Positions 39,228 through 56,320 of a stretch of DNA of 58,888 nucleotides are shown here, in pieces. Source of the DNA: a virus. Its lineage: Duplodnaviria > Caudoviricetes. The notes beneath the pieces were generated by a model. That model was not told the origin of the DNA. It ran no database searches and saw only the letters and a list, made by a program, of their open reading frames with translations. The stretch covers positions 1 through 58,888 of IMG/VR virus record IMGVR_UViG_3300044691_000290. One strand, given 5' to 3'. Position 1 is the stretch's first letter. Each line of letters starts with the position of its first letter. The position numbers and the translations under genes were made by a program.

Positions 39228-39413
39228 ATGCAAAATATCCCCGAACTTCTCAACGCGCAGTGTTCCCACTCGCTGTCCCTCGTACGCGTGTCGGGCGGCT
39301 GGCAAGCGTCCCTAGAGGTGCGCACCGGATCGTTCCGCGTCCGCCACGGCGCCACGCCGAGTGAGGCGCTTTTGGACGTGCTGGGCGCGTCTGCGCCCCC
39401 GCCGCCGTACTGA
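39228..39413 (+). CDS. Small protein ending PPPPY
   Basis: Follows promoter copy 11; TGATG overlap with the primase gene. Confidence 0.6.
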   Translation: MQNIPELLNAQCSHSLSLVRVSGGWQASLEVRTGSFRVRHGATPSEALLDVLGASAPPPPY

Positions 39414-42085
39414 TGTCGTCCCCAGTGCTCACGCAAGATGCCCTAGACTACTACGCGCGCCACTCTTGCGCCTTGTTTCCGATTCCGGCCGGGCAGAAGT
39501 TCGGACACCTCGTCGCATCCTTTGCCCATGATTGGAGCCGGGACCCCGCACAGTGGGCGCGCTGGCAGGCAGAGCATCCCGGCTGCAACTTTGGGATGGT
39601 CGCTGGACCGTCCAAACTCATTGTCGCAGACATTGACATTGTAAAGGATGAAAAGGCTTGGGATAACTATTGCTACTTCTGGACTTCTCGCGGGCTGACC
39701 GTTCCTGTGCCGCAGGTGCGTTCTGCGCGCGGCGGATATCATGTTCTCTTCGCGGTCCCCGAAGATTTTGACACGGGCAATCTTCGCCAGGTGCCTTTGC
39801 TTCTCAATGTCGATATTCGAATCAACAACGGCTATGTTGTTGCAGCTGGGTCTTATTATGACGGGACTCAGAAAGGTGAAGCGTCCGGTCACTATCAGCT
39901 CATAAAGGATGCTTTTCCCCCTCACACGGACTCGGCGTGGTTCGCCGCACTGTTTGAAGTTCTACAAAAGAAAGCTGTTGTTTCAAAAGAAAACCTTCCG
40001 CCGCCCTCAATCGAAGAAATGCGGGAACGGTTGGTTCTGTTGCGCGACAAGGGTCTAGGTCGACGCGAAGGCGATAAATGGATCGCCGATTCTACAATTC
40101 TCGACGATATGCCGGATGGTCGCGAAAAAGAAGAAAAACGCGAAGTCGGTTTTTTTGCCCAGCATGATCAATGGTATAAAGCCGTTTTCGCGCTCCGTCG
40201 CGCATATGGACAACAAGGCTTCGAATTAGCGCAATCGATCAGTAAATATCGGGAAGAAAAGCTAGTCGCGGTATGGGGACAATCAGAAAGTACGACAGAT
40301 AATCCCGCCACAATCGGGACATTAATAAGAGCGTCGAACGATCTCGGATATCGCGGAGAAAAAGTAATCCGTGAAATGGCCGCCGCAGTCGGCGCGCGAC
40401 TGTCGTCTGCTGGTCCAATGCCGCTCATGGACACTCAGTATTTCGTTGCAGCCCTGGGTCAGGGTTACTTGGACAATTTCCTCGCCGGTACGAAAGACGC
40501 GCCTGGCCGACATGGCGGGGATCATCCCACACTTCCTGACAATCAGAACACCCATCCGCTTTACGAACAAATGTGCGCGGCAATCGAGCGCATCATGACA
40601 ATGACGGACGGGGGAGCCAAAGTATTCAGGCAAGATCGGGTGTTCAACGTTCTAAAAGTGCTACACCACATGCACCCGCCGACATGCATCAGTCTTTGTC
40701 AGCGAATCACATCGCTTCCGGGCTGCGTTATCACGCCTGGTAAACTAGATTCGGCGATTAAGAATTTTGAATGGGAAGTTCGATCGGAGCAGAACACACA
40801 GGCCGGATTCATCACGGACAGCAAGGGCAATCCTGCTCCCGAGAACTCAGACAACGTAAGGGCATTTGCGCGGCAGCGCGCCGTCGCACTACGTTACAAT
40901 GTCTGGAGGGAACAGGTTGAAGTGTCAGACGGAGGAGATTTCCTACAACTCACAGATCACATTTTTGGAGACTTACTCATGGACGCGAAGAACAGCGCAT
41001 TCAATTATCACCCGTCAGAGAGTCTGTTCCGCCGCGGAATGGTAAGCATCGCGCGCCGCAACCAGTTCGACCCTATCGTGGAAAAATTGGACACTCTCGC
41101 CGCTGCATGGGATGGAAGCGCGCGCCTCGACACCTGGATTTCCAAATGTTGCGGGACGCTGGACGACGCCTATCACACAGCCGTCTCGCGTAATCTTATA
41201 GGTGGCCTCGTGCGGCGAGCGCGGCATCCCGGTTGCGAGCAATCGGAGACAGTCATATTCATTAGCCCCACGCAGGGGACGGGTAAATCAACGCTTTGCA
41301 AGATCCTCGCGCTTGACTCAGCCTGGCACACGGACTCATTCAAATTCGAAGGTTCCGCACAAAACACTATACCACAGCTTGCAGGAAAGTGGCTGATCGA
41401 ATTGAGTGAGCTAACGGGCCTTGCGCAAAAAGATGTGGAGCACGTCAAAAGCTTCCTGTCCGCCACAAGTGACAACTTTACGCGTAAATATGAGGCTTTC
41501 GCCACGGACCACCCGCGCCGCTGCTGCTTTGTCGGCACCTCGAACTCGCGCCGGCCGCTCCAGGACAGTTCGGGAAACAGGCGCTTCCTTCCCGTCCAGG
41601 TCCAGGGTGAGGTTAACACAGATTGGCTGCGCGCCAACGTGGAGCAGATCATGGGAGAATGTGCAACGCGAGAAGCGCAAGGGGAAATCTTTGCTATCCC
41701 ACGGAGCGTATGGGAAGCGGCTGGGAAGCATCAAGAGGCGGCCCGCGCCATGTCTGCCACGGAGGAACTTTGCCAAGAATGGTTTGATCGCCCGGCTGCC
41801 CCTTGGGGGTACTACATCACCGCAACAGACATTGGCCGCGCGCTCAAGATGGCGGGACAGTCACAGCACGCACGCTATGCGTCGTTCCTAGACAAGATGG
41901 AATGGCGCAACGAGAATTTGATCGTGCCCGGCACTGGGCGCAAGGCTAGAGTGTGGGTGCGGCACGCGAACAACCAACTCGATCAGTGCGCGCATCTGGA
42001 ACCGCTTCAAAGGCAAGTGAACGCCACGGTCGAGATGCGTTTAACGATGCCGGCAACCAAGGGGCTTCCAACTCCACCATATTGA
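39413..42085 (+). CDS. Bifunctional primase-polymerase fused to a VirE/VapE-type helicase
   Basis: Prim-Pol motifs VADID, SARGGYH, VDIR..NGYVV; Walker A QGTGKST, IELSEL, GTSN and GNRRF. Confidence 0.9.
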   Translation: MSSPVLTQDALDYYARHSCALFPIPAGQKFGHLVASFAHDWSRDPAQWARWQAEHPGCNFGMVAGPSKLIVADIDIVKDEKAWDNYCYFWTSRGLTVPVPQVRSARGGYHVLFAVPEDFDTGNLRQVPLLLNVDIRINNGYVVAAGSYYDGTQKGEASGHYQLIKDAFPPHTDSAWFAALFEVLQKKAVVSKENLPPPSIEEMRERLVLLRDKGLGRREGDKWIADSTILDDMPDGREKEEKREVGFFAQHDQWYKAVFALRRAYGQQGFELAQSISKYREEKLVAVWGQSESTTDNPATIGTLIRASNDLGYRGEKVIREMAAAVGARLSSAGPMPLMDTQYFVAALGQGYLDNFLAGTKDAPGRHGGDHPTLPDNQNTHPLYEQMCAAIERIMTMTDGGAKVFRQDRVFNVLKVLHHMHPPTCISLCQRITSLPGCVITPGKLDSAIKNFEWEVRSEQNTQAGFITDSKGNPAPENSDNVRAFARQRAVALRYNVWREQVEVSDGGDFLQLTDHIFGDLLMDAKNSAFNYHPSESLFRRGMVSIARRNQFDPIVEKLDTLAAAWDGSARLDTWISKCCGTLDDAYHTAVSRNLIGGLVRRARHPGCEQSETVIFISPTQGTGKSTLCKILALDSAWHTDSFKFEGSAQNTIPQLAGKWLIELSELTGLAQKDVEHVKSFLSATSDNFTRKYEAFATDHPRRCCFVGTSNSRRPLQDSSGNRRFLPVQVQGEVNTDWLRANVEQIMGECATREAQGEIFAIPRSVWEAAGKHQEAARAMSATEELCQEWFDRPAAPWGYYITATDIGRALKMAGQSQHARYASFLDKMEWRNENLIVPGTGRKARVWVRHANNQLDQCAHLEPLQRQVNATVEMRLTMPATKGLPTPPY

Positions 42086-42087
42086 AG

Positions 42088-42115
42088 TTGACTTTCCGCA
42101 TTAGAACGGTAAACA
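42088..42115 (+). promoter_or_regulatory. Repeated promoter/operator, copy 12
   Basis: TTGACT-ttccgcattagaacgg-TAAACA, 2 bp after the primase stop. Confidence 0.8.
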
Positions 42116-42143
42116 TACGCTCCGAAACCGGAGACCCCCACCT

Positions 42144-42845
42144 ATGGCTAAAGTCACATTAGACGGCAGAGAGTTCCGCACGGTAGGGGAGGCGAAACAA
42201 TTTCTTCAAACCAAAATGAAGGGATACGCTCTAAATCAACCTGTTCCGGACGAAGATTGTCCGATTTGGTTTAGTTATCTCCAAAAACACGAATGGTTCG
42301 AGAAGTATGTCGAATTCGGCATTCATCGATTTGTCTTTGTAAAAAACGAGAAATTCCCAACAAGCGGAATGGCCGTTGAGAATCGATCGGGAGAAAGATG
42401 GCCGTTTAGCTATCACAAATATCTCGACGGAAAGCCGCTAACGAAGTTGACCAGGGTCAAAGTGGCCCTTCGTATGGAGATCACGTCGCAGATCGACGAA
42501 TTCAGAAACAAGATTTTTGAAGGTAATCCGATCGTTCCGTGCGCACTCACCGGCCAACTATTGAACATGGGCCAGTGCGATGTGCATCACAGCGGCAAGC
42601 CGTTCGTACAAATAGCGGACGAATTTCTTGAAATGAACAGACACGTTTGGTGCGGGATAGAGACGGAGTCTGTCGGCAAGACCGGACATCGTTTGCTCGA
42701 TCGGAACATTGCTGCCGCGTGGGCAGACTTCCATCGAGCCAATTCGGTTCTTCAAATCACCTCACGAAAAGTGAACCAAAAAATCGGCTCCGGCGGATAT
42801 CGGATGCTGTTCGAGGAGCCTATTCCGATTCCGCCGCCATATTGA
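42144..42845 (+). CDS. DUF3223/DCL-like protein with HNH-like C-terminus
   Basis: KH...K, FSY.K, C.LTG, DVHH and WADFH motifs; low GC; RBS GGAG. Confidence 0.6.
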   Translation: MAKVTLDGREFRTVGEAKQFLQTKMKGYALNQPVPDEDCPIWFSYLQKHEWFEKYVEFGIHRFVFVKNEKFPTSGMAVENRSGERWPFSYHKYLDGKPLTKLTRVKVALRMEITSQIDEFRNKIFEGNPIVPCALTGQLLNMGQCDVHHSGKPFVQIADEFLEMNRHVWCGIETESVGKTGHRLLDRNIAAAWADFHRANSVLQITSRKVNQKIGSGGYRMLFEEPIPIPPPY

Positions 42846-42869
42846 AAACTTATATGTTGAATTTACGAC

Positions 42870-42900
42870 GAGCCGCTCCGAGATGGGCGGCTTTTTCTTT
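42870..42900 (+). terminator. Rho-independent terminator
   Basis: AGCCGCTC...GGGCGGCT followed by TTTTCTTT. Confidence 0.7.
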
Positions 42901-43261
42901 GGCTGCCGGCAGTATGCGTTTTGCAACCCATGTGAGGTATACATGATGATATGCCTCCCACTGGTTGTCAACATTTCCGTTTTTGGCTGTCAACATGTAT
43001 TTGGTGTTCCGTCGTTTCCTTTGTGATTTCAATGCTTTGGACGTCTGGACACCTAGAACGTCTATTTCCTAAGGAGGCCCAGCCACGGGGCGATATGTAC
43101 CCCCTAGTACAGAACTATTTCTACTCCCATAAACTTCTATAGAAAAGGTGGTTCTAGGTGTTCTAGACGTCCAACCCACTGAATGGAAAAAGGAATTCGG
43201 TGGACACCTAGCAGAATCTAGCCGTTCCAGGCGTTCCGGCCCTCCGAAGCAAACTTACCTG

Positions 43262-43289
43262 TTGACTTTCCGTTTCGGCGCGATAAAGT
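43262..43289 (+). promoter_or_regulatory. Repeated promoter/operator, copy 13
   Basis: TTGACT-ttccgtttcggcgcga-TAAAGT. Confidence 0.75.
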
Positions 43290-43320
43290 CCCACTAGGTT
43301 CACAGAGGAGGCACCAGGCC

Positions 43321-43512
43321 ATGGTATGCGACACATGCGAAGCATACACCGCTAACCCCGAAGACGAGTATGGCGAGCACATCTGCGACAACTGTGCACA
43401 GAACGCCGCCGAGCGTGCATGGGAGCGCCACTGCGAAGATTTCCACGACGGGGGCGCGTCAGGGTGGCGCACGCTGGCCGAGCGGCAGGCAGACGCTAGG
43501 AGGCTGAAGTGA
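43321..43512 (+). CDS. Small zinc-finger protein
   Basis: Two CxxC; RBS GAGGAGG. Confidence 0.6.
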   Translation: MVCDTCEAYTANPEDEYGEHICDNCAQNAAERAWERHCEDFHDGGASGWRTLAERQADARRLK

Positions 43513-44000
43513 CGCCCCCCGAACTCGCCCAGCGCCTCGCCGCCCTAGACTGGTCCAACACGAGCCTGCAGCACCAGCTCGCTGTGGCGTGCGCAATCTC
43601 TAGCCTCAAAGGAATGCCCCATGACGATTCGCTACGAGATCAATACGAAACAGCGCAGCGGGAAGAGGGTCGCGCCATGACCGCAACCATCCTGCCCTTC
43701 CCCTCTCGAGTGCCCCAGCCCGCGCGTCCCAGCTTCCCCCCTCCCCTCGCCGTGCCCCGCCCTCGCACTGTCACCCTCCTGACCTTGGAGGGCGCCCCGT
43801 TCGCCAGCGCCGGCTTCCTGCCTGGCGATCCCGGCGCCCCGTGGGCATGGATCCAGAGCGTGGTGGCGGAACAGTGGGGCGTCGAGGAGGACGCTGTGGG
43901 CACGTTGGAGTCGGAAGAGGGGGACTTTGTGACGGTCGACGGGCTGCCGATGTATCGGGTGGCGCTGCCCGCCCCTGCCGCCCCCAACCTTTCCTGTTGA
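43509..44000 (+). CDS. Hypothetical protein
   Basis: Coupled start; stop lies inside promoter copy 14. Confidence 0.55.
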   Translation: MTPPELAQRLAALDWSNTSLQHQLAVACAISSLKGMPHDDSLRDQYETAQREEGRAMTATILPFPSRVPQPARPSFPPPLAVPRPRTVTLLTLEGAPFASAGFLPGDPGAPWAWIQSVVAEQWGVEEDAVGTLESEEGDFVTVDGLPMYRVALPAPAAPNLSC

Positions 44001-44024
44001 CTTTCCGCATTAATGCGATACAAC
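43997..44024 (+). promoter_or_regulatory. Repeated promoter/operator, copy 14 (palindromic core CGCATTAATGCG)
   Basis: TTGACT-ttccgcattaatgcga-TACAAC. Confidence 0.8.
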
Positions 44025-44047
44025 CTTTCCAAACCTAAGGAACGACC

Positions 44048-44866
44048 ATGCAAATCACGATAGAAGTAGCGCGCAAGGTACTTGAAATCATAGACGCTGG
44101 CCTCGTGCGCGGTGTCGGCGATCCCCGCCCCGGCGCCATGTGTGTCGAGGCAGCGGTTTGTTTCGCTCTCGATTTGCCGCATGGTGACGATCCGCAGTGT
44201 GTATCGCGCGCCCTCCGAGCGCTCAAGATCAAACTCAACGATTCGAACTGGTCATCGCCGGGCGCGCGAGCCAAAGGGTTGCGCCGACTCGCAGTTGCGC
44301 AGCTCGGTTCGCGTGACGCGCTTGACGATCGGGAATTTACGAAGCGGGTCGCAAAACTCGCTATCCAAACGAGTGTGCCGATTGCGCTTCGGGCTGCGGC
44401 ATCGATTCACAAAAACCCGATTCATGCGCAAGCACTGCGCGATGCGGCGAATGTATGCGAGCGTGAAGGGACGCGCGATTCAGTTTTAGCGGCAAAGAAA
44501 ATCACCAACGCCGCCTACGCCGACGCCGCCGCCGCCTACGCCGACGCCGCCGCCGCCTACGCCGACGCCGCCGCCGCCTACGCCGACGCCGCCGCCGCCG
44601 CCTACGACGCCGCCGCCGCCTACGCCGCCGCCGCCGCCGCCGCCTACGACGCCGCCGCCGCCTACGCCGACGCCGCCGACGCCGCCTACGACGCCGCCGC
44701 CGCCTACGCCGCCGCCGCCGCCTACGCCGCCGACGCCGCCGACGCCGCCTACGCCAACACACGCGACAAGCACCTTAGCGAATTCGCAGAAGGCGTCGTG
44801 CAAATCCTGATCGAAATGAAAGTGCCGGGCTGTCAGTGGTTGCCACTAACGGAGGTTGCGGCGTGA
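44048..44866 (+). CDS. Hypothetical protein with Ala/Tyr/Asp low-complexity tract
   Basis: MCVEAAVC..PHGDDP.CV N-terminus; YADAAAA repeats. Confidence 0.75.
   Translation: MQITIEVARKVLEIIDAGLVRGVGDPRPGAMCVEAAVCFALDLPHGDDPQCVSRALRALKIKLNDSNWSSPGARAKGLRRLAVAQLGSRDALDDREFTKRVAKLAIQTSVPIALRAAASIHKNPIHAQALRDAANVCEREGTRDSVLAAKKITNAAYADAAAAYADAAAAYADAAAAYADAAAAAYDAAAAYAAAAAAAYDAAAAYADAADAAYDAAAAYAAAAAYAADAADAAYANTRDKHLSEFAEGVVQILIEMKVPGCQWLPLTEVAA
44510..44755 (+). repeat. In-frame GCC/TAC/GAC tandem repeat
   Basis: About 245 bp built only from GCC, TAC and GAC codons. Confidence 0.95.
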
Positions 44867-45220
44867 CCAGCCAACAGCAAGCCGACGAAATGCTCGCCGA
44901 GCACCGCGCTCGCAGGGAGGCCGTCATCGCAACCGTGATGCGCACCGGCATCACCTGCTACCCAAGTGGCTACGCCAACAAGGAAGGCTGTCTGCTGTGC
45001 CGGAAGGGACCGTGCCGCGGACCTGTGGAGAAGTACGAGTCGTGACGCTTCATCAGCTCCGAGAATTGGTGGCTATTCAGGCCGAAGATGAAGCGTTGTG
45101 GGCGCCAGCCGCACGGATTGAAACGGGATACGCGCAACAAGCCTTGCGCTATCTCACTCGCGCCATTGAGGGCGAATGGACGTTTGAACAGACACGAGAC
45201 GCAATTCGGGAGATGATGCC

Positions 45221-45448
45221 ATGACACGAGATGAAGCACTAAAGCGGGCGCGCTCGCGCGGATTTACCAGTAGCGCAAATGATTGGATCGGCCTTTTTGA
45301 AGACCTCGGTATGCTCGAACTGGAGGATCCAGTCGAGAAGAGGCTGATCACGATAATCCGCGATAATCCGCGACTCGACCACATCGCGCCGGTTGATGTA
45401 TTGAACGCGATCGCGTTGGCTGGTCTCAAACTGGTGGACGCGAAGTGA
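45221..45448 (+). CDS. Hypothetical protein
   Basis: ATGA-coupled ORF in the early gene array. Confidence 0.5.
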   Translation: MTRDEALKRARSRGFTSSANDWIGLFEDLGMLELEDPVEKRLITIIRDNPRLDHIAPVDVLNAIALAGLKLVDAK

Positions 45449-45843
45449 CCCCCGGCCGACGCGGTTGGATCGTTCTCGCCCTCCTCGCCTTTGCCGCCAC
45501 TGGCGCGGCATGGGGCCACGACCACGAGCACCCGGAGCTTGATGCGTGGTACGCCGGCCTGATGCAACCGGATCAGCCGCTTGTGTCGTGCTGCGGCGCT
45601 GCAGACGCCTATTGGGCGGACGAGATTCACGTTCGCGACGGGAAGACGTTTGCAGTGATTACGGACGACCGGGAAGACGCGCCGCTCGGAAGGCCACACG
45701 TCGACGTGGGGACGGAAGTCGAGATTCCGAATTACAAGCTGAAGTTCGATCGGGGTAATCCTACGGGTCACGGCGTGCTGTTCATGCGCCATGGCATCTA
45801 TGGCGACTACGTATTCTGTTTTGTGCAAGCGGGAGGTGTGTAG
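45445..45843 (+). CDS. Exported Cys-containing protein
   Basis: Signal peptide ending AWG; SCCG.AD, GNPTGH and CFV..G motifs. Confidence 0.7.
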   Translation: MTPGRRGWIVLALLAFAATGAAWGHDHEHPELDAWYAGLMQPDQPLVSCCGAADAYWADEIHVRDGKTFAVITDDREDAPLGRPHVDVGTEVEIPNYKLKFDRGNPTGHGVLFMRHGIYGDYVFCFVQAGGV

Positions 45844-46393
45844 CCGTGCTGACATGGGCATTCGTCTGGTACATGGTCAAAACCAGTAGCCACAGCTCAA
45901 TGGGGCACATCATCCCCATGGGCTGCGACGTGGCCATTTTCTATTACATCGCATGTGCGGCGGGGCACACGTGACACCACCTCTCTCTCCCACCCAAACC
46001 GCCTTCCTCGCTTTCCACACCCAGCCACCCGAAGCGTGGCGCTGGCACTTTCTTGGCACGCAGCTCCGTGCGTCCCGTGCTGGCGCCTCTGCCACGATCT
46101 GGCATGGCGACCTGGAGCACCTGGTCCGGCTGGGCCTGATGACGTTCGGCTTGGGCTGTGCCGACGTTCACCTGACGCAACGTGGTGCGGATACGCTGCA
46201 CGAGATGGAGGAAGCGTGACACGAATCAAACGAGTCACTCTGAAGAATCGGAGCGATGCGGTTGCGCCGATTTGCTTTCGCGGCGTTATTGAAGACGGCG
46301 ATTTGGGCATGGCTGAGTTTCGCTTTGAGAGACTTATTTACATATTTGAGCGGGACGGCTCGACTTCTGCCTATCCGCAGTACGTGAGGGCCG

Positions 46394-46639
46394 ATGCGTA
46401 GCCCTCTACGCGCGTTCATCGATGCTGTTGAATTGCCAAACCACGAAACTGCGATTCGCAATCTGGACTACTCAAATCCGCGTTTGAGGATCGAGCGACC
46501 CGGCGGCATCGTGTACGTCCGCGCGATGCCTCTCGAATGGTTGCGACAGAATAATCCATTGTATCGGTCGCTGCTCGCTAGAAGCGTACCCAACCGCCTC
46601 TACGGCACAACCCTAACCGACGAAGGTGAAGCGATATGA
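46394..46639 (+). CDS. Hypothetical protein
   Basis: Coupled ORF; ends DEGEAI. Confidence 0.5.
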   Translation: MRSPLRAFIDAVELPNHETAIRNLDYSNPRLRIERPGGIVYVRAMPLEWLRQNNPLYRSLLARSVPNRLYGTTLTDEGEAI

Positions 46640-47198: not shown

Positions 47199-47201
47199 TT
47201 G

Positions 47202-48481: not shown

Positions 48482-48952
48482 ATGAACAAGCCCGATTCGC
48501 CATACACCATCCAAGAGGTGGACGCGACTCGGCCCGAGTATGCTGCGGCAATCCACGCCTTCAACGCCCTTTTCCCCGATGACTTCGTACCGCTCCAGCC
48601 GCGTCACCTTGGCGCTGGCACGTATTGGTGGCTGGTCACGGTTGGCCCCGCGATCATCGCATTCGCAGGCATGGTGCCGTTTGAGCCATTCCCGCGGTGC
48701 GGCTACCTGAAGCGCGCGGCTGTGCTGCCGGCGTACCGTGGCAAGGGGCTGCAGGGACGCCTGATGGCTGCGCGTCTCACCCGCGCGGCAGAGGCCACGG
48801 ACTGGACGCATATCGTATCAGAATGCGCCGTGACGAACGTCGCGAGCGCTAACAACTTCATTCGCGCCGGGTTTCGCCTCGTCGAGCCCGAACGTGTTTG
48901 GGACAAGGAAAATCTGGTGTGGAGCCGGGCGGTGGATCGGGGTGCGACATGA
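48482..48952 (+). CDS. GNAT acetyltransferase
   Basis: V.P.YRGKGLQ acetyl-CoA motif, N.ASANNF.RAGF; start uncertain (alternative 48374). Confidence 0.8.
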   Translation: MNKPDSPYTIQEVDATRPEYAAAIHAFNALFPDDFVPLQPRHLGAGTYWWLVTVGPAIIAFAGMVPFEPFPRCGYLKRAAVLPAYRGKGLQGRLMAARLTRAAEATDWTHIVSECAVTNVASANNFIRAGFRLVEPERVWDKENLVWSRAVDRGAT

Positions 48953-49121
48953 CCATGCCATATTTATACAACGGACAAGAGTTCGTCGATTTGAGCGCGG
49001 ATGAATTCAGGCGAGTAAACAGGGCCGCGAATAATCTCGGTTTGATGGCGTTCGTCACGATGATTCGCGAAAGGGACGAAGGCAAACTGATTTCGTTCCA
49101 TCTCAAAAGCAAGTTCGACGC

Positions 49122-49316
49122 ATGACGCCCCTAACGCACCGCACCTGCTCAACGTGCGGCCATTGGCGCTACCCAGCGCCCGCCACCGCGCCGGACGAGG
49201 ATACCGTGAACGCGCTTTGCTCCATCCAGAACGTGCTTAAGAGAGGCGGCGACAAGTGCAGCAAGTGGACCAAAGTGGAGCCGGAGCCGGTCGAGACGTG
49301 GGAGACCTGGCTTTAG
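49122..49316 (+). CDS. Small Cys-rich protein
   Basis: TCSTCGHW...C...C.KW. Confidence 0.5.
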   Translation: MTPLTHRTCSTCGHWRYPAPATAPDEDTVNALCSIQNVLKRGGDKCSKWTKVEPEPVETWETWL

Positions 49317-49429
49317 CGGCCGGAGCCACGGTGCTGGGCGACCCTCCGCACTACCTCCTGACGGCCGAGCAGCTTGCTGCGTTCGTGGTTTTGGTGGCGC
49401 CCCTGGCCGTCCCTGCGCCTCCATATTGA
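49298..49429 (+). CDS. Small protein ending VPAPPY (below the ORF-track cutoff)
   Basis: Manual translation (V)GDLALAAGATVLGDPPHYLLTAEQLAAFVVLVAPLAVPAPPY*; fills the gap between genes; start uncertain (49256-49298). Confidence 0.5.
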   Translation: MGDLALAAGATVLGDPPHYLLTAEQLAAFVVLVAPLAVPAPPY

Positions 49430-49447
49430 CCGAACATTGAGGATACC

Positions 49448-49729
49448 ATGGACAATATACGGCGAGCCTGCCTTCTTATTTCCCGTTCGAACGGTGGCAT
49501 AAATCGCGACCGAAGCGAATCAAGGGTGCTGCGCGAGATGCAGCATTTTCTTGATCTATGCGCCTACCGAGACGAATTGCCAGCCATTGATGCTTGGCTT
49601 GGCACCTTAGGAGCAGAACAATTCGAAACGGTCTGCGACGGCGAAATGTCGGAGGCGGACGCGATCTTGACGAGCGCGCCGCCCTTCACGAACACTTTGC
49701 TGAATGACTACTTCGAAGAAGTTTGCTGA
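49448..49729 (+). CDS. Hypothetical protein
   Basis: RBS GAGGA. Confidence 0.55.
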   Translation: MDNIRRACLLISRSNGGINRDRSESRVLREMQHFLDLCAYRDELPAIDAWLGTLGAEQFETVCDGEMSEADAILTSAPPFTNTLLNDYFEEVC

Positions 49730-50139
49730 TCAGCGGTCTCAAAAGCAAGTTCGACGCATAAACCGAGGAGCGAAAATGGATGACGAATATTTAGAACTTC
49801 GCGCGGCTGTGAAACGGCTTTACTATGCCGCTTATTGGACGCCGGACCGCCCCTGCGATGAAGTAAAACTGTGGGAGGATGTGCGGGAAGCCGCTGGATT
49901 TACTCCCGGAGAGACGCGCAAGCGCCTTGGGGCTACCCGGTCTTGATCAGAAACCAAGGATACAAAATGATGGACCCGACCCTCCGAGGCGAATGCGATC
50001 ATGAACTTACACTTTTGCGCCGTCCCGTGACAACCGCGCCTCCCAGGTTCGACCGCTTCTCTTGCAGTAAGTGCCTGGCGGTTTTATGGGTGCCTATAGA
50101 GCATCCTCAGTTCATACACGCTTCGGACAAAATTAGCTG

Positions 50140-50167
50140 TTGACTTTCCGTTTTGGTGCGGTAATGT
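50140..50167 (+). promoter_or_regulatory. Repeated promoter/operator, copy 16
   Basis: TTGACT-ttccgttttggtgcgg-TAATGT; contains the upstream TGA stop. Confidence 0.8.
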
Positions 50168-50190
50168 TGCGGCGGAAACGGGAGAGCGAC

Positions 50191-50364
50191 ATGACCAAGA
50201 CGCGCAAGAGCACCCCAAAATACGAAGTTTATCACACTGACGGGCTGGTGATTCTGAGCGGCATTTCCCATACTGAAGCCACCAATTTCGCTCGCCAGAT
50301 GGACGAAGGCTCGAAGAAAAAGCGCTTCGCAGTGCGGCCCGTAGAGCGGCAGGCTGCAGCGTGA
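50191..50364 (+). CDS. Small hypothetical protein
   Basis: RBS GGGAGA after promoter copy 16. Confidence 0.55.
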   Translation: MTKTRKSTPKYEVYHTDGLVILSGISHTEATNFARQMDEGSKKKRFAVRPVERQAAA

Positions 50365-50741
50365 CATTCAGAGGCACACAAGACGAGATCGCGTCGCTAA
50401 ATATCGGTGACACGCTCTATCATTTCGACGGCAACCGGCGCGTCTACCATCCTGACCGCCACAGTGGACCGATTTACGAAAGGCATTTCGAACTTGTCGT
50501 GATTATCGGCGAAACCAAATTATCTTGGATAATGGATCGTTACAAAAATAAGGTGAACAAGAAGACGCTAGAATCCGCTTGCCAGTTCGCGGAGCGCGGC
50601 TACTTCACCAAAGCAGGTATGGATGCCGATATCTGGAGCCATGACCATCGTCACAAAATTATCGATGGGGTCCGACACGTTGATACAGAGCGATTAAAGG
50701 AAATCGCGCGAATCCTTGGCTACGACGCGACGCGCCCGTGA
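50361..50741 (+). CDS. Hypothetical protein
   Basis: FD.NRRVY and IIGETK.SWI motifs; coupled start. Confidence 0.6.
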   Translation: MTFRGTQDEIASLNIGDTLYHFDGNRRVYHPDRHSGPIYERHFELVVIIGETKLSWIMDRYKNKVNKKTLESACQFAERGYFTKAGMDADIWSHDHRHKIIDGVRHVDTERLKEIARILGYDATRP

Positions 50742-50854
50742 CCGTCCAACTCCGTCCCAACCAAATCGAAGCGGCCGACGCCGTGGAGGACGCCTTCCGG
50801 GCCGGCATCAACCGCCCCTTGGTCGACTCCTGCGTCGGCTTCGGACAAAATTAG
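50738..50854 (+). pseudogene. Truncated duplicate of the helicase N-terminus
   Basis: MTVQLRPNQIEAADAVEDAFRAGINRPLVDSCVGFGQN* versus helicase MTLTLRPNQLAAADAVEDAFRAGINRPLVDSCVGSGKS. Confidence 0.85.
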
Positions 50855-50857
50855 TTG

Positions 50858-50885
50858 TTGACTTTCCGTTTTGGTGCGGTAGGTT
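50858..50885 (+). promoter_or_regulatory. Repeated promoter/operator, copy 17
   Basis: TTGACT-ttccgttttggtgcgg-TAGGTT. Confidence 0.8.
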
Positions 50886-50911
50886 CGCTTTACCAGCAAC
50901 GGGAGAGCGAC

Positions 50912-51097
50912 ATGAGGCTAAAAACAGCAACGGCACGGTTTGAGGGTGATAGCGTCGCAGTCGATACCAGCGAGCGACGCTGCGTTTATATGGCGTCCCC
51001 TCTCGCAGGAATGCGAAGCCCCGTGGAGCGCGCCAATATGTATTTGCGCTCGTTACGTCCGCTTGGTTATGACGTGACGTTACTGGATGAGGTATGA
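50912..51097 (+). CDS. Small hypothetical protein
   Basis: Same RBS block as 50191; ATGA-coupled to the helicase. Confidence 0.55.
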   Translation: MRLKTATARFEGDSVAVDTSERRCVYMASPLAGMRSPVERANMYLRSLRPLGYDVTLLDEV

Positions 51098-52710
51098 CCC
51101 TAACCCTCCGTCCTAACCAGCTAGCCGCAGCCGATGCGGTCGAGGACGCCTTCCGGGCCGGTATCAACCGGCCCTTGGTGGACTCCTGCGTCGGCTCGGG
51201 TAAGTCGCTGATCATGGCGGAACTGGCGCGCCGCGCCATAGAGCGCGGCGAGCGCGTCATCATCGGCGCCCATACTCGCGAGCTGGTCGAGCAGAACGCC
51301 GCGGCCTGCCGCTCGTTGGGCCTGCAGTGCGGTATCAACGCCGCCAGCCTTGGCGAGCGCACCTGGCGCGCTCCGGTCATCTCAGCCGCGATCCAATCCG
51401 TTTACAAGTCCGCGCAAAGCTTCGGTCCGATCGGCATGTTCCTTGGGGACGAGGCGCATCTCTGGCCCCACTCCGAGGCTGGCATGTACCGCGCGCTGGT
51501 GCGCGACCTTGGCAACCCGCGCGCAGCCGGCTTCTCGGGCACTGTGTTCCGCTTGCAGGGCGGCAGCCTGGTCGAGGGCGAAGGCGCCCCATTCGATCGC
51601 GTGGTGTATCGCTACGGCATTGTTGACGGGATCCGCGACGGCTATCTCGTGCCTGCGTTCAGTGTCACGGCCGACGACAAGATCGACCCGACCAAGCTCA
51701 AGACGCGGCAGGGCGAGTTCACAGGGGACTCGCAGGACGCGCAAATGCTTGACCTGATGGACAACCATTTGGCGCAGATGTGCCACCACGGACGCGCCCG
51801 CCGCGCATGGCTGGTGTTCGAGGCATCGACCAAGGCAGCTCGGGCGATGGCGGAACGTTGCAACGAGTGGGGCGTGCCCACGGGCCTAGTGCTTGGCGAG
51901 ACGCCAGCGGGAGAGCGGGCGCGCACCATTAGCGACTACCGAGCGGGGCGCCTCAAATGCTTGGTCAACGTCGCAGCGCTTACTACGGGTTTCGACGTGC
52001 AGCAGTGCGATATGCTTGTGATGCGGCGTCGTACCAAGTCGCTCGGGCTGTACCTGCAGATGACCGGCCGCATCCTCCGCACGATCGGCGGCAATATCGA
52101 AGCTTCCATCGCGGCCGGCAAGCCCGACGCCATCGTTTTGGATTTTGCCGGCAACATCGACGCGCACGGCCCGCTTGATTTTATAAGGCCAAAAGACACC
52201 GCAGCGCGGCTGGTGAGTTGCGAGGAGTGTGGCAAGCGCAACGCAGCGGCGGCCATGAAATGCTGGTCCTGCGACGAGCCCATGACGAAACTGTGCCCGG
52301 CGTGCCTCGTGGCCGTGCAGAAAGGCATACTGGATTGCCCCGGATGCGGGTATGACATGCGCGTCGGTGGCGGGGCGGAAGGGGGGAGGCCGGCGCAGAA
52401 GCTTCTGGACACGCCTAGCGGTGCGGCTTTGATTAGTTCCTACAAGCCTGCGAGTGAGAGGGCTGGCGGTTGGTTGCCCGTGCGGCGGGTATGGGAACGG
52501 GACGGCGTGGTGACGGTGGCGACGGCGGACGAGACGTGGGAACTGCCCGAAGCACTCCGGGACGTGGCACAGGATGCGCGATACGTGCGCGTCGGCGTGG
52601 GGCTGTTGGTGCCAAATGGTCTGAATCGCAACAGTATACGACAGTACGGTCCAGACGGCGCAATGCTTTTGGTTCCGATGCCGTCCGCCGCTCCCGAAAC
52701 TATTGGTTGA
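51094..52710 (+). CDS. SF2 DEAH helicase (RadD/YejH-like) with zinc ribbons
   Basis: GSGKS, DEAH, SGT, LTTGFD and QMTGR.LR motifs; four CxxC. Confidence 0.9.
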   Translation: MTLTLRPNQLAAADAVEDAFRAGINRPLVDSCVGSGKSLIMAELARRAIERGERVIIGAHTRELVEQNAAACRSLGLQCGINAASLGERTWRAPVISAAIQSVYKSAQSFGPIGMFLGDEAHLWPHSEAGMYRALVRDLGNPRAAGFSGTVFRLQGGSLVEGEGAPFDRVVYRYGIVDGIRDGYLVPAFSVTADDKIDPTKLKTRQGEFTGDSQDAQMLDLMDNHLAQMCHHGRARRAWLVFEASTKAARAMAERCNEWGVPTGLVLGETPAGERARTISDYRAGRLKCLVNVAALTTGFDVQQCDMLVMRRRTKSLGLYLQMTGRILRTIGGNIEASIAAGKPDAIVLDFAGNIDAHGPLDFIRPKDTAARLVSCEECGKRNAAAAMKCWSCDEPMTKLCPACLVAVQKGILDCPGCGYDMRVGGGAEGGRPAQKLLDTPSGAALISSYKPASERAGGWLPVRRVWERDGVVTVATADETWELPEALRDVAQDARYVRVGVGLLVPNGLNRNSIRQYGPDGAMLLVPMPSAAPETIG

Positions 52711-52734
52711 CTTTCCGAATTGATGCGGTAGTGT
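52707..52734 (+). promoter_or_regulatory. Repeated promoter/operator, copy 18
   Basis: TTGACT-ttccgaattgatgcgg-TAGTGT; contains the helicase TGA stop. Confidence 0.8.
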
Positions 52735-52755
52735 GCCGCAAGAGGAGCTTACACA

Positions 52756-53199
52756 ATGAAGTGCTACCTGTTCGACATTGATGGCACGGTTGCAGACCTG
52801 TCACATCGTCTTCACCACATTCAAGGGGAAAAGAAAGACTGGCCGGCATTCTTTGCCGATTGTCACGGCGATGCGCCGATCCCACACATAATAAAACTGG
52901 CACATGATTTGGCGCTAGAAACAGATATAGTTTTCGTTTCTGGTCGTTCAGATCAGGTACGAGAGCAAACGCTGGCGTGGCTTCAAACACATTTTGGCGA
53001 CTTGATTCATTCGCCCGGCATTTACATGCGTCGCGAAGGCGATCACAGGCCCGATAACTTGGTCAAAGCCGAACTGCTCGACCGCATTCTAAAAGATGGG
53101 TACGAGCCTATCATGGCTTTCGACGATCGCGATCAAGTTGTGAAAATGTGGCGCGAGCGCGGCATACCGTGTGCTCAGGTAGCCGAAGGCGCTTTCTGA
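52756..53199 (+). CDS. HAD phosphatase (polynucleotide kinase-phosphatase type domain)
   Basis: FDIDGT, VSGR, MR..GD.RPD..VK and FDDR motifs. Confidence 0.85.
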   Translation: MKCYLFDIDGTVADLSHRLHHIQGEKKDWPAFFADCHGDAPIPHIIKLAHDLALETDIVFVSGRSDQVREQTLAWLQTHFGDLIHSPGIYMRREGDHRPDNLVKAELLDRILKDGYEPIMAFDDRDQVVKMWRERGIPCAQVAEGAF

Positions 53200-53223
53200 T
53201 TCACCCAACCCCCACGAGGTACC

Positions 53224-53532
53224 ATGTCCAAACCCACCTTCCAACGCCCCCCGCTCACCCTCCCCGCCGACCGCGCCCCGGCCCCCGCTGTGCCCCTCCC
53301 ACCCCTCCTACTCCAATTTCCCACGCCCTGGATCGTCGGCGCCTATGGCGACATTTGGGTCGCGGCGGACATGGAGCGCGCGCCCTCGGAGCCGTCCAGC
53401 TGGCGTGCCATCTCTCCGATGCCGCGGCTTGTGATGGAGTGCTCGCTATGGGAAGATAAGATGCTGCCGGGGCTCGCGGAACTGATCGTCGAGGCTGTGA
53501 ATACCTTGGGCGCAGCGCGTCCCCCATACTGA
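53224..53532 (+). CDS. Hypothetical protein ending RPPY
   Basis: RBS GAGGT; TPW and AELIVEAVN motifs. Confidence 0.6.
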   Translation: MSKPTFQRPPLTLPADRAPAPAVPLPPLLLQFPTPWIVGAYGDIWVAADMERAPSEPSSWRAISPMPRLVMECSLWEDKMLPGLAELIVEAVNTLGAARPPY

Positions 53533-53643
53533 GCCCCAAGGCCCCGAGGAGCGCTGAGATGCCCTGCGTCGAAACAACTCTATTGCGGTTCGCGTTTTTG
53601 CTTGCGATGTTTACGCTAATTGTGAATTGGCTCGGATAGACGC

Positions 53644-53922
53644 GTGACTGACGCCGCCCAAATACTCTCGCTCTGCGACGCTGGCGAAACCCCGGCCGCG
53701 ATCGCTGCTGCCCTGTCCCTGCCACCGGGCCGCGTCTATGCCATCCTGCGGCGGGAGCGGCCCAACCGCACCCGCGCCCCTCGCAGTCCCACGTCGGACA
53801 AGCCGCGAATGATGCGGGGCTTGGCGGCTGCGGGCATTGCGCCGAAGCGGATCGCGGTTTTGCTGGAGGTGGCGCCGGCGTATGTCTACCGGGTATTGGC
53901 GCAGAATGGAGACCGAGCATGA
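53644..53922 (+). CDS. Tandem HTH protein
   Basis: Two units: G.TP.AIAAAL.LP..RVY.IL and GIAP.RIA.LLEV..AYVYRVL. Confidence 0.65.
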   Translation: MTDAAQILSLCDAGETPAAIAAALSLPPGRVYAILRRERPNRTRAPRSPTSDKPRMMRGLAAAGIAPKRIAVLLEVAPAYVYRVLAQNGDRA

Positions 53923-54140
53923 GCCGCGAATTCAAAGTCACGCTTACGCCAGCCGATGAAGCCCTGTTCAAGTTCGACGCCGAAAACAACGTCGAGCCAG
54001 CGCGGACGATTGCGGAGCGGCTTGCTCTGAAATGGAGCACCTATCTCCGGCCCGAAATGGTTGACGACATCGCGTGCGCGATCGAGGATGCCAGAAATTT
54101 AGGAGAACGCCGCGGTATCTTCACCGCCCCGCTCTCCTGA
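53919..54140 (+). CDS. Hypothetical protein
   Basis: ATGA-coupled, RBS GGAG. Confidence 0.5.
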   Translation: MSREFKVTLTPADEALFKFDAENNVEPARTIAERLALKWSTYLRPEMVDDIACAIEDARNLGERRGIFTAPLS

Positions 54141-54156
54141 GCGCTTCAAGTAGTTG

Positions 54157-54184
54157 TTGACTTTCCGCATTAGAGCGGTACACT
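54157..54184 (+). promoter_or_regulatory. Repeated promoter/operator, copy 19
   Basis: TTGACT-ttccgcattagagcgg-TACACT. Confidence 0.8.
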
Positions 54185-54206
54185 CTCTCTCTCTCTAAAG
54201 GACACC

Positions 54207-54446
54207 ATGACGCAGCCCCACCCTGCCACAACTGATTGCTTCTCCAAGGCCGGCGCTTCTCAGCTCGCCGAGACCATCACAACGTACTGGCACAGCCGCG
54301 GCTATCCGTGGGTAGCAGTCGAGCGCTACGTGCTGCCGGATCGCCCGAGCATGTGGGGCGTGCGGTCGAACCTGGTGGACGGCTTGCCGCCGACGCGCCG
54401 GCCCGGCAGGACGCTACGGGAGAGAAGAATGGAGTTTTTGAGGTGA
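54207..54446 (+). CDS. Hypothetical protein
   Basis: GA..LA..I..YW..RG and VRSNLVDGLPP motifs; RBS AAGGA. Confidence 0.65.
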   Translation: MTQPHPATTDCFSKAGASQLAETITTYWHSRGYPWVAVERYVLPDRPSMWGVRSNLVDGLPPTRRPGRTLRERRMEFLR

Positions 54447-55068
54447 GCGGCATCTACGTGTACACCTGCGCCTTTGGCGAGGTGCGGCTCCCTGAAGCGA
54501 CCACGGTTCGCATGAACAAGAACGGCTGGCCCGATCGTCGGTTCGCCGAAGGACGACGGTATACGGCGTACTTACGTCATATCGACAAAAAGGCGGAACG
54601 AGAGTTTCTTGCGGGACGTTACCTCGAAAGCGCACCACCGTATAGCACTTGGAAATGGAGCGATGCGTCGTGAAAATATTCCCTCGGGATCAATGGGGGC
54701 GAATCCCCGCGATATGCGCGCCCCGCTGGACGCTCACATGGTCGTGGCCACGCGGGAAAGTGGCTTGGTTCTTTTGGAATTTGGGTGGAATGTATCGCAT
54801 CGGTCCAATTACGCTTTGGTTGGGCAGCAAGTGAGCGGGCCAAAGAAAATCGATCCAAACTTCGCTCCGGGCTCGCATGGCTGTCACGAAGCCCTGCACA
54901 TGACGAGCTTTCTAATCAGCGCGATCGACAACGAGCTTTGCGAGCACGAAGCCATAAAGGCCAATAAAGAATGGCGCAAGCTGGCTGTTCTAGCCGCCGA
55001 ATCCTTGGAGAGGCTGTATAGCGCAATCGGCAAGGATCATATTAGGTCAGCTTCCGAAACGCAGAGCG

Positions 55069-55090
55069 TTGACTTTCCGCACTAAAACGA
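55069..55090 (+). promoter_or_regulatory. Repeated operator, copy 20
   Basis: TTGACTTTCCGCACTAAAACGA immediately upstream of a separate canonical promoter. Confidence 0.75.
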
Positions 55091-55094
55091 CGTG

Positions 55095-55123
55095 TTGACA
55101 AACCCCGTCCCTCCTGCTAGAAT
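55095..55123 (+). promoter_or_regulatory. Near-consensus sigma70 promoter
   Basis: TTGACA-17 bp-TAGAAT. Confidence 0.8.
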
Positions 55124-55132
55124 GGAACCACA

Positions 55133-55327
55133 ATGAAAGCTTTTCTGTTCGTCATGATTCTGATGACCCCTGACGGCAAGCTGCCTCCGCAACAGGAGCC
55201 GATGGACACCATGGAAGCCTGCGTGGCCCGCGTCGCGGAGATGCAGACCAAAATGGCTGCCGTGAATGAGAATTTCGGCTTTCAGACGACATGCGTCCAA
55301 ATGTCCAAGAAGGCCGATCCGGCTTAA
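55133..55327 (+). CDS. Small exported/membrane protein
   Basis: Hydrophobic N-terminus, two Cys. Confidence 0.55.
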   Translation: MKAFLFVMILMTPDGKLPPQQEPMDTMEACVARVAEMQTKMAAVNENFGFQTTCVQMSKKADPA

Positions 55328-55344
55328 GCCTAAAGCGTTCCTGT

Positions 55345-55829
55345 GCGCCGCTCACCAAGTCAGTATAGTCCCCGTGGGGATAGAGCGGCGTTCAAGAGTG
55401 CTAACGTAATTCGGAGCGGGTACCGGCCGGTAAACCCACGCGCCGCCCTTCGCCACAGAGGGCGCTCCGGATACGCGGCGGCTATCCCTCTGCGGAGGCG
55501 AACCGTAACGTCGGGCATCCTGTGGTCCCGACCGCCGCGTTTTCAATCTAAACCCCCTCGGGGGTCACGCGGCGACCAGCGCGGAACGTAGAATGACGAT
55601 CACGCGAGGCGGGGCCTGACTACACGGGGATGTCCCGGTCACGGAATCACCGCACGATAACCAAAGGTCGCCGTGTGCGGCTCGCTGGCGCCGCGTTTTC
55701 AATCAGGTGGGGAAGTCGGAAGTAAGCGCAGGGGAATCCCCAACCCTGCTACGAAGGCGGATGGGTGCTCGAATTGACGAGACAGCACGGCTAAGGCGGT
55801 GACTGCTGCCAAGACGTAACCCACCTGAT
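55345..55829 (+). ncRNA. Candidate array of structured non-coding RNAs
   Basis: Five consecutive segments each closed by a 7-14 bp stem; no convincing ORF; strand inferred from the upstream promoter. Confidence 0.55.
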
Positions 55830-55870
55830 GCTCACTCTAGCTTCCGCGGAGGCGGCTAACAGCGCGCCCC

Positions 55871-56314
55871 ATGGCGACAACCCTAACAGACGAGCAGCGC
55901 GCCTTCATCATCTGGTCGATCGCGCACTGCAAAGAGCCTGAACATATCGTCTACAGTTTCAACGAGCGGTGGAAAGCGAAGCCACCTTGCACCATCGGCG
56001 ATGTCGGTGCTTGTGATCCCAAACGCTTGACCGGCGAGTGGCTGGCCTATTTCAACGAAGAGCGCGAGACGTTTCTAGCAGCGCCAACCACAGACAAGCG
56101 CATTCGTATGGCGCTGCTTAATCGCGTTATCATGGACCTGGAAAGCCGCGGCATGTACCGGACGGACCCGAAAGGGTTCCTTCAAGCCGTCGAGCTGATG
56201 GCCAAGGAGGATGCTGGGTTCTTTGCGCCCAAGGCTCTGCCGGGGGCGAAGGCGTCGGGCCGCATCGAGTTTAGCTTCGAGGCGGATCCGCTGCCGCCTG
56301 TGCCGCCTTACTGA
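55871..56314 (+). CDS. Probable terminase small subunit (DUF2280-like), ends PPVPPY
   Basis: MATTLTDEQRAFII..IA, DP.R, W..YFNE.RE.F and AKE motifs; upstream of the large terminase. Confidence 0.65.
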   Translation: MATTLTDEQRAFIIWSIAHCKEPEHIVYSFNERWKAKPPCTIGDVGACDPKRLTGEWLAYFNEERETFLAAPTTDKRIRMALLNRVIMDLESRGMYRTDPKGFLQAVELMAKEDAGFFAPKALPGAKASGRIEFSFEADPLPPVPPY

Positions 56315-56320
56315 TTCGTG

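Follow-up and report, generated by a model that had tools for sequence, protein, structure and literature searches.

Six Pro-Pro-Tyr ends in the rightward arm

We describe here a C-terminal tail, Pro-Pro-Tyr (PPY) at the very end of the protein, that recurs on six proteins of a Caudoviricetes genome, IMG/VR record IMGVR_UViG_3300044691_000290. The window is the whole stretch of DNA that was analysed; it equals the full record (58,888 bases), which CheckV rates at 100% completeness. Pro-Pro-Tyr-TGA terminates six plus-strand open reading frames (ORFs) of the window, and each of the six ends listed in a preliminary description of this DNA was found, with the codons given there. The carriers are as follows:

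39216..39413, plus strand: FamA, a small protein of 65 amino acids (aa) ending in ..GASAPPPPY; first gene past a promoter-like 17-mer at 39189
39413..42085, plus strand: primase-helicase of 890 aa, PrimPol, PriCT-2 and VapE/D5-type helicase (Pfam, PHROG), ending in ..ATKGLPTPPY
42144..42845, plus strand: phrog_28887 protein of 233 aa, function not assigned, ending in ..EEPIPIPPPY
49256..49429, plus strand: FamC, 57 aa, ending in ..LAVPAPPY
53224..53532, plus strand: predicted 102-aa ORF ending in ..LGAARPPY, called from its length, its codon score and the presence of the tail
55871..56314, plus strand: DUF2280-like protein of 147 aa, weak Pfam and PHROG matches, ending in ..DPLPPVPPY

The FamA stop codon overlaps the start codon of the primase-helicase (TGATG). 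All six ORFs lie inside the rightward arm (39216-56314, plus strand) and none in the structural block (1-24.5 kb); the placement first described, rightward, non-structural and outside the virion genes, thus holds for six of six, and the carriers are, as had been claimed, otherwise unrelated early or non-structural proteins.

To compare these ends with chance expectation, we counted them at both the DNA and the protein level. The 12-base pattern CCNCCNTAYTGA occurs six times on the plus strand of the window and never on the minus strand, whereas 100 dinucleotide-preserving shuffles averaged 0.17 matches and never gave more than 1 (0/100 reach six). The shorter CCNCCNTAY occurs 11 times on the plus strand and twice on the minus strand; TGA comes next at six of the 11 plus-strand sites, and TAA or TAG at none of them. 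Among the 87 genes called with a crude home-made caller, terminal PPY was observed six times against 0.0072 expected (binomial P = 1.7e-16), and all six called proteins that end in Tyr are PPY-ended. The called proteome contains 11 PPY tripeptides, six terminal and five internal, two of the latter being the S/D-PPY catalytic motif of two amino-methyltransferases. The excess over chance that the preliminary description asserted is therefore confirmed. The explanation that the ends arose by chance or from base composition, or that a promoter, linker or repeat in the DNA merely happens to read as PPY-stop, could appeal to the 55-62% G+C of the window, to the Pro- and Ala-rich disordered tails of this genome, and to the promoter-like 17-mer, which begins 2-6 nt past two of the six stops. 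The 17-mer (GTTGACTTTCCGCATTA) was rejected as a DNA-level cause, since it follows only 2/6 stops; wobble bases vary, the binomial P is about 1e-16, tails are kept in divergent homologs, and G+C-rich host genomes show no excess (both described below). For practical purposes this explanation is refuted by the shuffles, the binomial count and the conservation of FamA and primase-helicase tails, and we regard its probability as negligible.

The motif was delineated from a sequence logo of 51 distinct PY-ended tails taken from all proteins fetched, a selection that presets positions -1 and 0. Position -5 is mostly aliphatic (L24, I7, A6, V6, M4, P4), Pro occupies -4 in 32 tails, -3 in 41 and -2 in 44, and positions -8 to -6 favor P, A and G. 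The resulting consensus, [LIVMA]-P-P-P-P-Y-COOH, is a defined six-residue short linear motif in which a rod of four prolines links an aliphatic anchor to the terminal Tyr. In the window itself, the last four residues are PPPY (39413 and 42845), TPPY, APPY, RPPY and VPPY, such that the P-P-x-Y spacing occurs in the first two only; three or more consecutive prolines are likewise found in 2/6 window tails and in most tails of relatives. Acidic residues number 0-2 within the last 10 positions of the six window tails, with none in the last 5. The last residue of the tails is Tyr, Cys or, once, His, and a Phe-ended tail was encountered in one case only among the relatives' gene ends read (L017, ..GIPEPPF).

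Both the codons and the stops point to the peptide as the unit under selection. The wobble bases of the PPY codons vary among the six window tails, and the nearest relative, G001, has ORFs ending in ..APPPY-TGA, ..CPPPY-TGA, ..GPPPY-TAG, ..PPPPY-TGA and ..PPPPY-TAA. Because wobble bases vary and all three stops follow the tails of relatives, the target of selection is the peptide and neither the DNA nor the stop codon, in agreement with the preliminary description. That all six window stops are TGA, also remarked there, is true and uninformative, since TGA ends 27/36 called genes of the rightward arm (probability of six in six, about 0.18). These observations bear on a translational explanation, in which Pro-Pro-Tyr before the stop would slow termination or stall the ribosome (EF-P, RF2 at TGA) and thereby tune expression or coupling to the next gene. 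Polyproline runs are EF-P-dependent stall sites, many tails of relatives are PPPPY, and in one of the six cases the stop and the following start codon overlap. Nevertheless, relatives use TGA, TAG and TAA, just two of the six window tails have at least three prolines in a row, the equivalent CPVPLR/K tails of orthologs contain no Pro-Pro, and conservation extends to the last residue and to position -5, neither of which a stall requires. The conserved aliphatic residue at -5 suits a binding groove and not the peptidyl-transferase centre. Furthermore, the context past the stop is not uniform, the next start lying -1 to about 100 nt away. The TGA-linked pausing alternative is accordingly disfavoured, and we consider a translational role very unlikely. 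Read-through of the stop codon was also rejected: a new in-frame stop follows 1 to about 40 codons past each TGA, with nothing conserved there.

Conservation and variants of the tail in related phages

FamA homologs are found in 7/9 of the related records compared first, all of them tailed (PPPPY in 5, PPPPC in 1, CPVPLR in 1), and in a 5.8-billion-protein collection a proline tail is present on 39/39 homologs, which end in [PL]PY (19), PPC (9), a CPV-type sequence (10) or PPPPY plus 4 residues (1). The motif stands at the very end in 38/39 of these homologs as well as in 6/6 window ORFs. In an AlphaFold2 (AF2) model, the folded part of FamA (alpha-beta3-alpha) stops ~10 residues short of the C-terminus, with low pLDDT, a per-residue confidence score, over the tail; a fold search returned weak dsRBD-like or Acb4-like rows only (E 0.1 or worse). 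For the primase-helicase, the tails of 103 homologs were classified. The closest 50 end in PPY (15), xPY (6), PPC (2), PPH (1), a CPV-type tail (6), another proline-rich tail (9) or none (11), while the next 53 are mostly untailed (45), the remainder being CPV-type (3), other proline-rich (3), and ..DDIPF and ..DDAPF (one each). The tail is thus retained in homologs (39/39 for FamA; PPY or xPY in 21/50 of the closest primase-helicases), the point on which the preliminary description had staked its proposal.

PPPPY was seen in only 2 of 150 listed representatives of the 233-aa protein (969 homologs), both among the top three scores. FamC, previously noted as an unannotated ORF, does carry the tail and deserves a different label, being a real conserved gene whose BLASTP cluster includes tailed homologs in G003 (..QAPPPPPY) and G007 (..PPCPVPLPK). 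The 53224-53532 ORF yielded no homolog or family match and no cluster with relatives' proteins. The last carrier had been called a probable small terminase; its tail is confirmed, and the label depends on a sub-threshold DUF2280 match (E 0.0015) and gene order, such that a small terminase (TerS) is a possible identity for the product of 55871-56314. Six close database homologs of this TerS-like protein comprise three with PPY, one with PPC and two untailed, and its distant orthologs in G001, G002, G003, G006, G007 and G008 have no tail. Further carriers in relatives include a C5 DNA methyltransferase, several tiny proteins and a helix-turn-helix (HTH) protein of the HTH_23 family, whose members bear the tail in G001, G003 and G007 while the one in the window does not. 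The earlier characterization of the carriers as replication and packaging proteins was consequently too narrow. Judged from these comparisons, the tail is a clade-specific addition gained and lost on single proteins, as for short linear motifs.

The C5-methyltransferase gene of two relatives, L007 and L016, has two PPPY-stop ends in two reading frames, 17-20 nt apart, with stops that differ between the two phages (TAG versus TGA, and TAG versus TAA). Near-coextensive open frames span L007:11582-12550 (323 and 273 codons) and L016:7891-9303 (471 and 458 codons). Frame 0 holds the Pfam C5-methylase match in its N-terminal part, and in this frame the two phages also agree over the C-terminal ~100 aa; for the middle of the gene, which has WPTP repeats, it is the +1 frame that is conserved and that G+C at third codon positions fits. 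The frame-0 Val/Leu codons at the double tail are ones that we take to be rare in GC-rich genomes. This arrangement points to programmed frameshifting or overlapping genes, and by either mechanism both methyltransferase products would bear the tail.

PPY-stop ends are specific to this clade. Counting PPY-stop ORFs of at least 40 codons, we obtained 6 in the window, 4 in L007, 4 in L016, 5 in L023, 1 in L015 and 1 in L028; G003, the whole record of L023, has six DNA matches, on one strand and all in its first 13.4 kb. By comparison, 131 distant VapE-containing loci (L043-L173, 1.9 Mb) together contain 1. An exact 18-mer for PPPPY-TGA, representing one codon choice, matched 43 IMG/VR stretches, 12 of them at ORF ends, with at most one per stretch and only one belonging to the present clade; as a search for other many-tailed clades it revealed none.

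Closest to the window is G001 (64.7 kb), whose primase-helicase is 53% identical to that of the window. In a named-phage collection, megablast with 39000-57000 gave zero matches, and tblastn with the primase-helicase gave distant matches only, at <30% identity among the 30 matches listed. Database homologs of the primase-helicase bear the organism names Nitrobacter, Bradyrhizobium and Pseudolabrys, and related loci are present in Pseudolabrys and Afipia genome bins; from these names and bins, the phage host is probably one of the Nitrobacteraceae or Xanthobacteraceae. The clade consists of temperate phages, with named relatives within Nitrobacter, Bradyrhizobium, Afipia and Pseudolabrys genomes; G005 and G008 are labelled proviruses in IMG/VR, and the window itself has an integrase-like gene. 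The host-family genomes show no excess of the tail: across 61 of them (293 Mb), CCNCCNCCNTAYTRR gave 182 matches and its reversed control 485 (among the matches listed, many end in TGG, which is no stop), and two host-like bins gave 4 pattern matches versus 15 in the control.

Each genome uses one tail variant (PPPY, PPPPC or CPVPL[R/K/P]) for all its tails, as follows:

Y-type genomes: G000, G001, G002, G003, G004, L016
C-type (PPPPC) genomes: G005, G006, L027, L095
CPV-type (CPVPL plus R, K or P) genomes: G007, G008, G009
Tail-less genomes: the more distant relatives G010 and G011

Core genes form a mosaic, and bit scores per residue of 13 core families against the window do not follow the variant; the best matches of the protein that binds single-stranded DNA (SSB), for example, are to G003 (Y-type) and G008 (CPV-type). 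Named prophage copies carry the Y tail in Nitrobacter, the CPV-type in Bradyrhizobium and the C-type in Afipia (1-2 cases each). The simplest explanation of one variant per genome on a mosaic core is a reader outside the phage, i.e. a host protein, and on this pattern a host-encoded reader is more likely than a phage-encoded one.

A separate observation concerns Cys-ended proteins, of which tail-bearing genomes have 24/776 against 9.6 expected (2.5-fold, P 6e-5), tail-less relatives 0/153, and distant loci 41 against 45.8 expected. Four lie in the window (22191-23426, 43509-44000, 47305-47901 and 49448-49729).

The variants raise the idea of a chemical handle, in which the terminal Tyr or Cys, or the Cys-Pro of CPV, would serve as a metal or haem ligand or as a modification site. 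The last residue is Y, C and once H, almost never F; in FamA homologs, a CPVPL unit precedes every C-type tail and CPV units are often doubled; and the Cys-ended excess is confined to tail-bearing genomes. A Cys-Pro haem-regulatory motif is known, including that of Bradyrhizobium Irr. Set against this, the codons for Y, C and H (TAY, TGY, CAY) are one nucleotide apart, and mutational neighbourhood may explain part of the pattern; no modifying enzyme co-varies with the tails among the compared genomes; and Cys is found in 0/6 window tails, the C-P-[hydrophobic] unit of the haem motif being restricted to relatives with the CPV or C variant. We judge a role as chemical handle to be most improbable.

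Candidate readers and the address-label interpretation

We next consider what might read the tail. By Pfam, none of the SH3, WW, GYF, PDZ or TPR domains was found in 86/87 called window proteins plus the open-ended ORF. No core phage protein co-varied with the variant among the 13 core families, and no accessory gene specific to Y-type genomes was found. By presence and absence, the best candidate is the 43509-44000 family, which occurs in 6/7 complete tail-bearing genomes plus L016 and is absent in both tail-less relatives; its AF2 model is a beta-beta-alpha-beta-beta-beta domain for which Foldseek gave weak Roadblock/LC7-like rows (E 0.03 or worse). The family is missing in G006, and we do not claim it as a reader. 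The phage DNA polymerase, suggested by analogy to T7, is weakened as a candidate by the pairing of phrog_1252 in G000 with phrog_17 in G001, both genomes being Y-tailed; a capsid-targeting peptide similar to that of encapsulin cargo was set aside on the same pair, which by BLASTP have no structural genes in common. Co-folding of the primase-helicase with FamA gave ipSAE 0.00 in both runs, a result that bears neither way on binding.

A further protein in this context is a 113-aa RlpA-like double-psi beta-barrel (29612-29953, minus strand; DPBB_1, E 2e-20), also present in G001, G002, G003 and G008. An apparent N-terminal signal peptide, read by eye, makes a cytoplasmic reader role unlikely, and the protein is probably a secreted lysogenic-conversion or cell-wall protein.

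Destruction and recruitment are the two principal ways in which a host reader could act. In the first, which we rate as somewhat unlikely, the tail is a degron read by a host AAA+ protease, e.g. in the Lon N-domain pocket, such that tagged early proteins would be short-lived and their levels would track host state. The anatomy is degron-like, an exposed, disordered, C-terminal peptide on heterogeneous temperate-phage proteins, and it is borne by small proteins that resemble regulators, by a helicase of replication initiator type and by HTH, methyltransferase and TerS-like proteins; the absence of a host-genome excess is as expected of a destabilising tail. There is alphaproteobacterial precedent, in that one report describes His89 of LarA in a hydrophobic pocket of the Caulobacter crescentus Lon N-domain, with Arg29 holding the carboxylate, no Lon binding by an amidated LarA peptide, and N-domain preferences that differ among bacteria (PMC11882793). 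A second precedent, from another report, is the Yersinia Lon C-terminal degron x-[LI]-[LIV]-H (PMC11986505). Lon degrons act autonomously on unrelated proteins and need the free carboxylate (PMC11882793, PMC11986505); the phage tails, too, sit on unrelated carriers, and the two have in common the extreme C-terminal site and an aromatic or hydrophobic last residue. They differ in that the tails have Pro at -1 to -3, where known Lon degrons have aliphatics, end in Tyr or Cys and not His, and are unused by host-family genomes. Moreover, the same Yersinia text reports weaker recognition of large or charged last residues, with Arg among the worst (PMC11986505), whereas the tails end in Tyr and CPV-type tails often in R or K. 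The conserved -5 position also implies a groove longer than a one-residue pocket.

That the tail is a peptide-level recognition tag of some kind is, in our assessment, highly probable. Our reading of it as a docking motif, bound by one common receptor and recruiting its carriers to one site, is tentative, and we favor it slightly over the degron. The six tails would be copies of a clade-specific C-terminal short linear motif borne on short disordered linkers, in which a stiff polyproline-II rod would present the aliphatic side chain at -5 and the terminal Tyr (Cys in sister lineages) with its free carboxylate. A single common receptor, likelier host-encoded, would bind the tails and gather the tagged proteins at one location; carriers with a recognisable family act on DNA, and the rest are tiny proteins. 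The existence of a receptor, its host origin and an outcome of recruitment as opposed to destruction are our inferences.

Several observations weigh against docking. The search above identified no receptor, docking being deduced from motif anatomy, and the carriers form no single known machine. No tail is present on the polymerase, SSB or DUF2800 nuclease that the phage encodes, although a replisome hub should involve them. Phe is nearly never last and Cys, once His, replaces Tyr, whereas a simple hydrophobic pocket ought to tolerate Phe. C-terminality is not absolute, since FamA homolog P0137 has four residues after PPPPY, and the link between variant and host stands on very few named records. 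Finally, genes were called with a home-made program, which leaves short ORFs, 53224-53532 among them, as predictions. A more specific possibility, which we hold to be unlikely, is a phage-clade addressing code with Tyr/Cys chemistry whose reader is not the SSB-tip pocket, the clamp, ClpX or Lon. Under such a code, the Tyr hydroxyl or Cys thiol would act through metal or haem ligation or covalent modification and not packing, and the two-frame methyltransferase, by keeping its tail in both frames, would show the importance of the tag.

C-terminal docking tails and degrons are known kinds of signal; what would be new here is this motif, its spread, its variants and its clade restriction. No description of a bacteriophage PPPY tail was found in the literature searched, in line with the preliminary description, the "phage" matches being, as judged by title, phage display or animal viruses. 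Among known systems, the T4 gp45 clamp binds tails of the polymerase gp43 and of the late-transcription proteins gp33 and gp55. The likeness lies in a similar C-terminal peptide on unrelated replication or expression proteins that share one DNA-bound hub; the T4 sequences, however, are unrelated to the PPY tails. The bacterial clamp motif (QL[SD]LF / QLxLxL) is absent, as none of the six window tails has Gln, a residue found upstream, inconsistently, in a few tails of relatives. No clamp or clamp-loader gene turned up in family scans of the window.

The SSB of the window (33589-34455, minus strand; Enc34/T7 gp2.5-type) has no acidic tail and an ~80-residue Pro/Ala/Met-rich linker. Its conserved end, LPxFPxxR (..PLPAFPAPR in the window), is kept even in relatives without PPY tails, with orthologs in G001, G002, G003, G006, G007, G008, L019, L024-26 and L030.

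The SSB C-terminal docking tip is D-D-D-[ILV]-P-F-COOH. Together with the T7 gp2.5 and gp4 tails, it resembles the phage tails in being disordered, in ending, as the window tails do with Tyr, in an aromatic residue at the free C-terminus, and in serving several replication proteins. The two distant primase-helicase homologs that end in ..DDIPF and ..DDAPF resemble this tip at the same position, which we count in favor of docking. The phage tails differ in having a proline rod with no acidic run just before the end, in ending in Tyr or Cys and not Phe (Pro-Tyr-COOH in 6/6), and in carriers that include a methyltransferase, HTH, TerS-like and tiny proteins; the phage's own T7/Enc34-type SSB lacks the PPY tail and ends in LPxFPxxR, of which the G001 primase-helicase end, ..GLPPLPRL, is a look-alike. 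T7-type SSBs have acidic, Phe-ended docking tails according to PMC5686142. A PxxP/OB-fold idea for SSB is favored in PMC8881015 and PMC7290993, and examined or questioned in PMC7145534 and PMC10164576.

The ssrA/ClpX C-motif 1 (..LAA-COOH) does not match, as the tails end in PPY. PPPY does match, letter for letter, the canonical PPxY ligand of WW domains, with the P-P-x-Y core spaced correctly in 2/6 tails and in the PPPPY of the logo. WW ligand classes include PPxY, PPLP and PPR, and the three phage variants resemble them. Unlike the PPxY late domains of animal viruses, the phage tail is bound to the C-terminus, and it occurs with a bacterial host and no WW or SH3 domain in the phage.

The surrounding genome and significance of the tail

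Beyond the tail carriers, the window is organized in three blocks:

1-24.5 kb, plus strand: structural block, including an SU10-type major capsid protein (861-1820)
24.7-38.0 kb, minus strand: leftward block with an integrase-like gene, two amino-DNA-methyltransferases, DNA polymerase (phrog_1252), Enc34/T7-type SSB and a DUF2800 PD-(D/E)XK nuclease
39.2-58.9 kb, plus strand: rightward block with the PrimPol-VapE primase-helicase, an Rv2179c-like exonuclease, an SNF2/DEAD helicase, GNAT, a PNKP-type phosphatase, the HTH_23 protein and the DUF2280-like protein

The 17-mer that precedes FamA is found throughout these blocks, with 20 window sites at up to 3 mismatches (10 exact) versus 0.07 expected:

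Plus strand: 7841, 13382, 18941, 20235, 23422, 39189, 42087, 43996, 47201, 50139, 50857, 52706, 54156, 55068, 56320
Minus strand: 31135, 34501, 37212, 38021, 38143

All copies are intergenic and oriented with the local genes. The element can be read as a -35 box (TTGACT) and a -10-like box (TAnnnT) on either side of a CCGCATTAATGCGG-like spacer that is palindromic in part. It has the look of a promoter used across the whole phage, for early and structural genes alike, with an operator built in.

Upstream of FamA, a 151-aa protein (38238-38693, plus strand) forms a BLASTP cluster with full-length integrases of relatives, and is present in 13/13 compared records. Its sequence, judged by eye, is similar to the arm-type DNA-binding N-domain found in P4-type integrases, and the protein may act alone as a regulator or be excisionase-like. 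Other genes of the rightward block encode a 124-aa protein (46824-47198, plus strand) matching the nucleoside 2-deoxyribosyltransferase-like family phrog_355 (E 1e-8) and a 114-aa protein with a RyR domain (57344-57688, plus strand; E 4e-9). The ORF at 57690-58886 (plus strand), open at the 3' end of the record, has LAGLIDADG_3 (E 9e-12) and Hom_end (E 2e-6) domains, which suggests an intein or homing endonuclease where the large terminase would be expected. Family scans matched no terminase or portal family anywhere in the window, and the record may therefore be cut at its 3' end, within 57690-58886. No tRNA genes were detected in the window.

C-terminal peptides such as the SSB tip, clamp-binding tails and degrons are common in the organisation of bacterial and phage DNA metabolism, and to our knowledge a handful of model organisms accounts for nearly every case described. 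In the present phages of nitrifying and nodule-forming alphaproteobacteria, [LIVMA]PPPPY-COOH occurs on up to six unrelated early proteins per genome. Finding its reader would give several "hypothetical" phage proteins one common property. That reader would be either a new host hub used by phages or the basis of a new Nitrobacteraceae degradation signal, and it would turn the tail into a tag of 6-10 residues that could be moved to other proteins, to recruit or destabilise them in these hard-to-engineer bacteria. More generally, per-genome counting of C-terminal k-mers can reveal such codes.

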